From: Escherichia coli
GTDB taxonomy: Bacteria; Pseudomonadota; Gammaproteobacteria; Enterobacterales; Enterobacteriaceae
DNA length: 60,030 nt
Direction: 5' to 3' (one strand)
Assembly: GCF_003334405.1 (NCBI RefSeq)
Contig: NZ_QOWM01000020.1
Below the pieces are notes generated by a model. That model worked only from the letters and a program-made list of their open reading frames with translations. It was not told where the DNA came from and did no database searches. This document shows, in pieces, positions 59,330 through 59,955 of the stretch; positions within the stretch are counted from its first letter, which is position 1; each line of letters opens with the position of its first letter. A program made the position numbers and the translations under genes.

Positions 59330-59639
59330 AGGTTTCTCTTATGTTGGCGTTTTCTATTCAGTATAGAAGTCGGAGCGGCTGGGCGAGATGCGGAAGTTCT
59401 GGAATGTTTCTTTTTTTTGGTGATGGTGAACTGATGGTGCCTGAAGCAATTTGGCTACTTTTGCAATGTGACAAGTTATGGCAGTGCTGACTGGTGGCGA
59501 AGAATTTTGACGATTGAGTCATGCAGAAAAAAACGGGTTCAGCTTCAGTTGATTAAATGAGGAGTGAGAAGTCCGAAACAGGACTCACTGTATAAATAAA
59601 CAGCTATTTTGTTGAGGAAGGGTAAGATAACGGCGGGTG

Positions 59640-59705
59640 CCTGAAGCTTTCCGGTTTCAGGTTTACTCTGAGGTCTGGAAAGATGAAGCCCCAGGAGATA
59701 TTTCT
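59640..59705 (-). ncRNA. sokE: Putative Sok-type antisense RNA (sokE), position approximate
   Basis: Inferred only from hok/sok architecture (antisense to the mok leader/start); no independent signal seen in the sequence. Confidence 0.2.
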
Positions 59706-59781
59706 ATCAACCCTGGGGCTGCCACTCCAAACCCGAACAATTTGGATGGTAGTCCCTTCTTCGCATGGAGGCAATATAAAC

Positions 59782-59934
59782 ATGCTGACGAAATATGCCC
59801 TTGCGGCAGTCATAGTGCTGTGTTTAACGGTGCTGGGATTTACGCTTCTGGTCGGAGACTCGCTGTGTGAGTTTACGGTGAAGGAACGTAATATTGAGTT
59901 TAAGGCTGTTCTCGCTTACGAACCGAAGAAGTAG
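59782..59934 (+). CDS. hokE: Hok-family type I toxin (small membrane peptide)
   Basis: 50-aa [53 protein letters not shown]; the in-frame upstream extension (59683) corresponds to the mok-like leader ORF. Confidence 0.85.
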
Positions 59935-59955
59935 CCGTTGTGCGGGGAGTAATCC

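Follow-up and report, generated by a model that had tools for sequence, protein, structure and literature searches.

In the hok/sok system of plasmid R1, a post-segregational killing system, a stem between the tac element and the fold-back inhibitory element (fbi) locks the full-length mRNA, while after processing the mRNA is guarded against 3' exonucleases by its last stem-loop, and substitutions that weaken this stem-loop abolish toxicity (PMC9841398). The five hok loci of Escherichia coli K-12 have been described as inactivated by insertion sequence (IS) elements, point mutations or rearrangement, and reviews call the K-12 hok loci non-functional (PMC2654758 and PMC7232551, citing Pedersen & Gerdes 1999). 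One of the elements involved is IS186, whose published target is GGGG(N6/N7)CCCC (PMC6925257, citing SaiSree 2001) and whose insertion downstream of gef/hokC has been described as disrupting the fbi (PMC3562002). The same element also uses a target of this type repeatedly at lon (PMC6925257, PMC3861542). Here we describe the hokE/sokE type I toxin-antitoxin locus found at the end of a 60,030-nt stretch of the E. coli contig NZ_QOWM01000020.1 (the window in what follows), in which a copy of IS186 is inserted just past the hokE stop codon and separates the toxin open reading frame (ORF) from its predicted fbi.

The last 701 nt of the window (59330-60030) were base-for-base identical to positions 607,384-608,084 of MG1655 (offset 548054), and identical too in many K-12-type genomes. 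The MG1655 annotation of this region contains sokE (b4835), hokE (b4415) and IS186B with its transposase gene insL2, flanked by ybdK upstream and by entD past the IS186B, and in sequence, genes, junction and neighbours we found no difference between the window and the reference. The hokE coding sequence is intact, running on the plus strand from the ATG at 59782 to the TAG at 59932-59934 and coding for 50 amino acids (RefSeq WP_000956455.1, "toxin HokE"). The product belongs to the Hok/Gef family, matching all 42 positions of the Pfam model HOK_GEF (PF01848) with an E value of 4e-7. Against the NCBIfam models it scored below the cut-offs, with 47.7 versus 89 bits for NF007290 (HokA equivalog) and 38.9 versus 73 bits for NF007279 (Hok subfamily); HokE is thus neither a HokA equivalog nor a member of the NF007279 subfamily, what leaves its membership at the Pfam level unaffected. 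Together with an Rfam match in the leader and the RefSeq and MG1655 annotation of hokE and sokE, this agrees with the preliminary description, made from the sequence before any database search, which had proposed a hokE type I locus with intact toxin and in-frame leader ORFs. That description had placed the locus at 59330-59955. The junction end of this span was correct but its start was not, as the ybdK reading frame on the minus strand reaches 59329, so that 59330 is the first base past the ybdK start codon, and the hokE module proper starts at about 59568-59588. We are confident that the window shows the hokE/sokE locus of the E. coli K-12 chromosome, IS186B being inserted in the post-stop stem-loop. 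As the preliminary description had said, the situation is not new for K-12. The locus, its IS186B and the consequence for hok regulation were published in 1999 (Pedersen & Gerdes, as cited in the reviews above), the hokC parallel is in PMC3562002, and the element is part of the reference annotation.

The left inverted repeat of IS186 (CATAAGCGCTAACTTAAGGGTTG) occupies positions 59956-59978, separated from the hokE TAG by a spacer of exactly 21 nt (CCGTTGTGCGGGGAGTAATCC, 59935-59955), the distance that had been proposed. Similarity to uninterrupted E. coli loci ends at 59956 (query position 627). The window holds only the first 75 nt of the element (59956-60030, plus strand, 100% identical to K-12 IS186B), and the remainder was read from the identical K-12 records, where the element is 1339 bp long with perfect 23-bp repeats at both ends. 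It is flanked by a target duplication GGAGTAATCC, or GGGAGTAATCCC (12 bp) if the bases of uncertain assignment at the ends are given to the target. The insL2 ATG lies at 60011, with the first 20 nt of the gene inside the window and the full 1113-nt coding sequence annotated in the identical records. Terminal repeats, a single transposase gene (InsL) and a duplication of some 10-12 bp at a GC-rich site are what is expected of IS186, of the IS4 family. MG1655 annotates the start of IS186B at window position 59953, 3 nt before 59956. The boundary is uncertain by 1-4 nt because the palindromic target (GGGA/TCCC) prolongs the apparent inverted repeat.

In uninterrupted alleles the insertion point falls within a GC-rich stem-loop (GCGGGGA-GUAA-UCCCCGC), and the target reads GCGGGGAGTAATCCCCGC, which fits GGGG(N6)CCCC. 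What remains of this stem-loop in the window is GCGGGGA-GTAA-TCCC (59942-59956, plus strand), that is the 5' arm, the loop and the first bases of the 3' arm, whose remaining bases are found past IS186B. Strain HH97 provides the locus without the IS (TAG-CCGTTGTGCGGGGAGTAATCCCCGCATATCCGGTTGTCAGGTCAGGATGGTAAGGCACCTGCTTTAC). When the element and one 12-bp duplicate were removed in silico the HH97 sequence was restored over 500 nt, save for two single-nucleotide polymorphisms (SNPs) 5' of the mRNA start, indicating that IS186B is the only lesion.

The consequence of this insertion for the mRNA can be seen in the predicted folds. In the minimum-energy fold of the uninterrupted mRNA, nucleotides 1-8 (GGGUGCCU) pair with AGGCACCU at positions 3653-3660 of the empty-site record (L002), with pairing probabilities of 0.89-1.0. 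This fbi begins 26 nt 3' of L002 position 3627, which corresponds to window position 59956 and is the last base that the window and the empty site have in common. In the K-12 arrangement it has been moved about 1.35 kb away, past IS186. The IS-interrupted transcripts are predicted to pair their 5' end locally only, with a probability of long-range pairing of 0.02 or less. According to the models, the tac/fbi lock forms in the uninterrupted allele and does not form at the K-12 locus. The preliminary description had argued that the 3' fold-back element was cut off by the insertion, and an intact copy of it upstream of 59956 would have spoken against this. Neither the 21-nt spacer nor any part of IS186 contained an 8-nt complement of the mRNA 5' end, therefore the fold-back interpretation stands. 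A 7-mer (AGGCACC) near the right (far) end of IS186 was considered as a substitute fbi and rejected, no 8-mer being available. The hairpin split by IS186 is GC-rich and situated just past the stop codon, and judged by this position it would be the hokE counterpart of the protective stem-loop of R1 hok.

The likeness with R1 goes further. Both loci have a Hok-family toxin, a structured leader matching RF01794 and a GC-rich hairpin past the stop (PMC9841398), and the cis-antisense RNA of R1 has a putative counterpart in the annotated sokE. Both also have a predicted lock between the two mRNA ends. On the other hand hokE is chromosomal, has a LexA box and a leader ORF in frame with hok, and its 3' untranslated region (UTR) is interrupted, so that an R1-style lock and 3' processing cannot operate. 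By analogy with R1, the uninterrupted hokE mRNA (some 365-405 nt) would close on itself through the pairing of its tac and fbi sequences and in this state would be untranslatable and inaccessible to Sok; slow 3' trimming up to the post-stop hairpin would then free the 5' end and open the way both to mok/hok translation and to SokE binding. IS186 would have integrated at the GGGG(N6/N7)CCCC-type hairpin, duplicating the target, splitting the hairpin and shifting the fbi. Transcripts from the LexA-box hokE promoter would now continue into IS186, deprived of the tac-fbi lock and also of the 3' hairpin by which the mRNA is protected after processing. From the loss of both we infer that they adopt an open fold directly, are bound by constitutively expressed SokE and are degraded. 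In this scheme the K-12 locus would keep an intact toxin ORF but would have lost the stable reservoir of mRNA with delayed action. The proposal of the preliminary description that the insertion decouples or inactivates the locus is thus borne out as to the displacement of the fbi and the hairpin, while inactivation is what R1 hok biology would predict. Whoever works with hokE of MG1655 as though it were an ordinary SOS-inducible toxin gene works with an allele devoid of its 3' regulatory elements.

We have also compared the IS186 junctions at other hok loci. Those examined were hokE of K-12, copies 1 and 2 of hokE in B1 strains, hokC, hokX, hokB of strain LR-06 and the nupC terminator. All were located in GGGG-N5/6-CCCC hairpins with the same geometry. 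The element was found at the equivalent hairpin of hokC, hokX, hokB and the tandem hokE copies, in both orientations, every insertion having a target duplication of its own. In K-12 hokC, IS186A lies in the homologous hairpin GGCGGGGAGTGATCCCCGCC, about 21-22 nt past the stop, and parts the ORF from its fbi (CAACGCACCC), just as happens in hokE. Unlike in hokE, the element is in reverse orientation and there is no LexA box in the leader. The 12-bp duplication (GGGAGTGATCCC) has another sequence, and for this reason the insertion is an independent event. The hok paralogue between cysH and cas3 carries IS186 within GCGGGGGTAAAACCCCGC; it is the hokX of PMC7232551, stated there to be IS-inactivated in E. 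coli B. In B1-type strains, including O104:H4, there are tandem hokE copies, both occupied, in opposite orientations and with a duplication (GGGAGCAATCCC) unlike that of K-12. There the whole hokE module is duplicated in tandem (L006 2942-5690 and L009 1035-4400; GPEC1405 and O104:H4 2011C-3493), with IS186 in the post-stop hairpin of each. The same tandem duplication without IS elements has been reported in strain NRG857c (PMC7232551). The third K-12 copy, IS186C, is not associated with a hok gene and is inserted in the nupC terminator hairpin (GCCGGGGATAATTCCCCGGC); it is identical to IS186B over 1339 bp.

The recurrent use of the same kind of target beside toxin genes, which the preliminary description had remarked upon, is therefore real and is explained by the published consensus GGGG(N6/N7)CCCC. 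The hairpins of hokE (the B1 copies included), hokC and hokX and the nupC terminator hairpin fit this consensus, whereas that of hokB (GCGCGGGGATTTTCCCCGCGC; LR-06 and MG1655) has an N5 spacing and that of hokA lacks GGGG/CCCC altogether. The hokB hairpin was uninterrupted in 5392 of 5410 genomes and occupied by IS186 in at least one, that of LR-06 (L012 2051-2128). A difference of one base in spacer length coincides here with a very large difference in occupancy. No other GGGG(N6/7)CCCC site was found in the 60-kb window, where shuffled sequences gave about 0.5 expected by chance for each spacing. IS186 would recur beside hok genes because the paralogues share its preferred hairpin target and insertions there are tolerated. 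By comparison, the IS186 insertions in lon alter the expression of a protease gene and are unstable, with precise excision (PMC3861542), and those in hok hairpins are fixed in large clades. A different IS family is found at K-12 hokA (L011 649-2312), where IS150 is inserted upstream of hokA, in the mokA pseudogene and between mokA and sokA, not in the 3' hairpin. Hok loci are thus disabled by one IS family at one end of the mRNA and by the second family at the other.

In order to know how widespread these arrangements are, we counted them over 5426 complete E. coli genomes. IS186 was present in 2193 of them, with 8443 copies. The K-12-type hokE-IS186 junction appeared in at most 1873 genomes, an upper bound because the queries for the hokE(+) and hokX(+) junctions pick up each other's sites at 92.6% identity and a minority of genomes with hokX only is included. 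The inverted orientation at hokE was found in 1056 genomes and the K-12 hokC junction in 841. The hokE insertion is also carried by BL21. At least one uninterrupted hokE site was found in 3647 genomes, about two-thirds. By these crude counts roughly 40-45% of all the IS186 copies reside in hok hairpins. They mostly reflect the inheritance of a few old insertions and not independent events. Four paralogues (hokB, hokC, hokE and hokX) and each of the tandem copies of hokE have received IS186 independently, in both orientations. At the least, hok hairpins are a major site of landing and persistence for IS186, a modest evolutionary observation. That they are its main long-term residence in E. coli, perhaps through selection, is a more tentative idea that we would rather doubt than defend.

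Several points weigh against a loss of hokE function. The argument relies on R1 hok and on thermodynamic folds. The scan for consensus promoters detected neither the hokE nor the sokE promoter, so these putative promoters are placed by comparison with hokC and hokX and by the features annotated in MG1655. Furthermore, gef/hokC::IS186 is reportedly still transcribed and regulated by antisense RNA (PMC3562002), for which reason "inactive" is perhaps too strong a word for hokE, and the literature still treats hokE as an SOS-inducible toxin (PMC2826370). Even for uninterrupted chromosomal hokE alleles a role in killing would be hypothetical. One could then suppose that the insertion is neutral and that K-12 hokE is still a working SOS-inducible toxin under the control of SokE, the fbi being dispensable for a chromosomal copy that is never "lost". 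The promoter region, LexA box, leader, sokE and hokE ORF are all intact, as this would demand, and hokE is listed among the SOS-induced type I toxins (PMC2826370, PMC8406316). We nevertheless consider it unlikely, since the insertion takes away the fbi as well as the hairpin protecting the 3' end, and a weakened hairpin suffices to abolish toxicity in R1 hok (PMC9841398). Moreover, in RNA-seq of MG1655 exposed to azidothymidine (AZT) hokE stood at 0.47-fold, neither induced nor lexA-dependent (PMC11228462), the deletion of six toxins including hokE gave no persistence phenotype (PMC8406316), and the reviews cited above consider the K-12 hok loci non-functional. The damage inducibility of hokE in MG1655 is thus in conflict between PMC2826370 and PMC11228462, and an mRNA truncated by the IS could be one reason for it. 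On balance, a loss of hokE function by removal of the fbi and the hairpin, as suggested by the R1 analogy and the modelled folds, appears the better reading.

As for why IS186 is found so often in hok hairpins, selection might be more important than target preference, either because silencing the toxin is beneficial to the cell or because the hairpins act as safe harbours. The concentration of the copies in these few places speaks for it. Fewer than half of the genomes have IS186 at all, and the three junction types counted account for the 40-45% mentioned, while the shuffles, with their 0.5 sites per 60 kb for each spacing, predict some 80 sites per K-12-sized genome, of which the hok hairpins would be only a handful. 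If something beyond target preference were at work, IS186 could have been selected for disarming hok, or the hok hairpins could be harbours that keep the element in the lineage. Either would be a specific association between an IS and a toxin, one for which no quantification was met in the searched literature. We regard selection as the main cause as possible, with the odds clearly against it, since the counts are dominated by inheritance, all the junctions fit the known consensus so that preference alone is sufficient (PMC6925257), IS186C, the copy outside the hok genes, occupies a comparable hairpin in a terminator, and the rarity of insertions in hokB, one spacer base away, fits sequence preference better than a general selection against hok. 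The arrangement might also serve the element itself, if the co-oriented LexA-controlled hokE promoter made the expression of the IS186B transposase responsive to DNA damage. The insL2 ATG is on the same strand only 77 nt 3' of the hokE stop, the terminator scan found no terminator-like site between hokE and insL2, and the LexA box is present. However, the hokE transcript is not raised by AZT in MG1655 (PMC11228462), the orientation is not conserved, IS186 facing the other way in hokC and in the second of the two B1 copies of hokE, and nothing points to translational coupling, all of which makes this quite improbable. Finally, with only 75 nt of the element inside the window, its end could have been a fortuitous resemblance, or else an assembly error where the window stops. 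This is refuted by the identical junction in more than 1000 independent complete genomes, MG1655 among them, in which the full 1339-bp element with its inverted repeats and target duplication is present, and its probability is practically nil. Target preference together with loss of hokE regulation continues to be the explanation that we favour.

The upstream half of the module also deserves description. A LexA box (CTGTATAAATAAACAG, 59588-59603, plus strand) overlaps the -35 region of the putative hokE promoter. It is the sole CTGT-N8-ACAG match in the 60-kb window, it conforms to the CTG-N10-CAG pattern of LexA operators, and a heterology index of 4.9 has been given for it (PMC11228462); hokE also figures in a list of SOS genes with a LexA box (PMC2826370). 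At the aligned position neither hokC nor hokX has such a box. The putative -10 is TAAGAT (59623-59628, plus strand), proposed from the alignment with TATAAT of hokC and TAGAAT of hokX, and sits 6 nt 5' of the conserved GGGTGC that marks the mRNA 5' end. The mRNA would thus begin at 59635 with the tac element GGGUGCCUGAAG (59635-59646, plus strand), whose first base is also the first position of the RF01794 match and which pairs with the 3' fbi when the uninterrupted allele is folded. The Rfam match covers the structured 5' UTR with the Sok target (59635-59790, plus strand) over the full model (positions 1-157), scoring 84.4 bits where the gathering score is 59, with an E value of 4e-19. RF01794 is named "sok antitoxin" yet it matches the hok-sense strand, and the annotated SokE is a 60-nt transcript of the opposite strand. 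The family therefore models the hok mRNA leader and not the antisense RNA, and its strand is unsuitable for annotating sok genes. Minus-strand matches to mir-331 and mir-1990, of 19 and 18 bits, were far under the gathering scores and were discarded as chance matches to the SokE hairpin.

The sokE RNA itself is annotated at 59679-59738 on the minus strand (60 nt; b4835, 607733..607792 in MG1655). From its sequence and predicted fold it has an 11-nt single-stranded 5' tail followed by a GC-rich terminator-like hairpin. Its putative promoter (59746-59774, minus strand) has a -35 TTGCCT (59774..59769), a 17-nt spacer and a -10 TACCAT (59751..59746), the annotated 5' end of SokE being 7 nt past the -10. 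The -35 lies opposite the hokE Shine-Dalgarno sequence GGAGG, and in R1 too the sok promoter is opposite the hok ribosome-binding site; we presume that the two placements are parallel.

The in-frame leader ORF, a candidate mokE, stays open up to the hokE stop (59683-59934, plus strand), giving 83 amino acids from the ATG at 59683, which falls within the SokE duplex, or 62 from the ATG at 59746. The latter aligns with an ATG of hokX that is out of frame. No clear Shine-Dalgarno sequence was found at either of these candidate starts. A leader stem at 59727-59745 (L006 4739-4757) reads CCAAA...TTTGG in the K-12 allele, and the second of the B1 copies has CCGAG...CTCGG. Since the paired changes on both arms preserve the stem, it is suggested that the RNA structure and not a leader peptide is under constraint. 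A stop codon shared by mokB and hokB is contradicted by the MG1655 annotation.

At the other end of the module, transcripts initiated at hokE could continue into insL2 (window 59934-60013). Lastly, the NCBI pipeline places a "hypothetical protein" on the strand opposite to the hokE leader, at about 59545-59813 on the minus strand of the window (L001 3216-3484; L006 2704-2973). It is frameshifted in K-12-type genomes and intact in B1 strains, with 89 amino acids (WP_009008364.1), and is in all likelihood a spurious reading frame that happens to overlie structured RNA.

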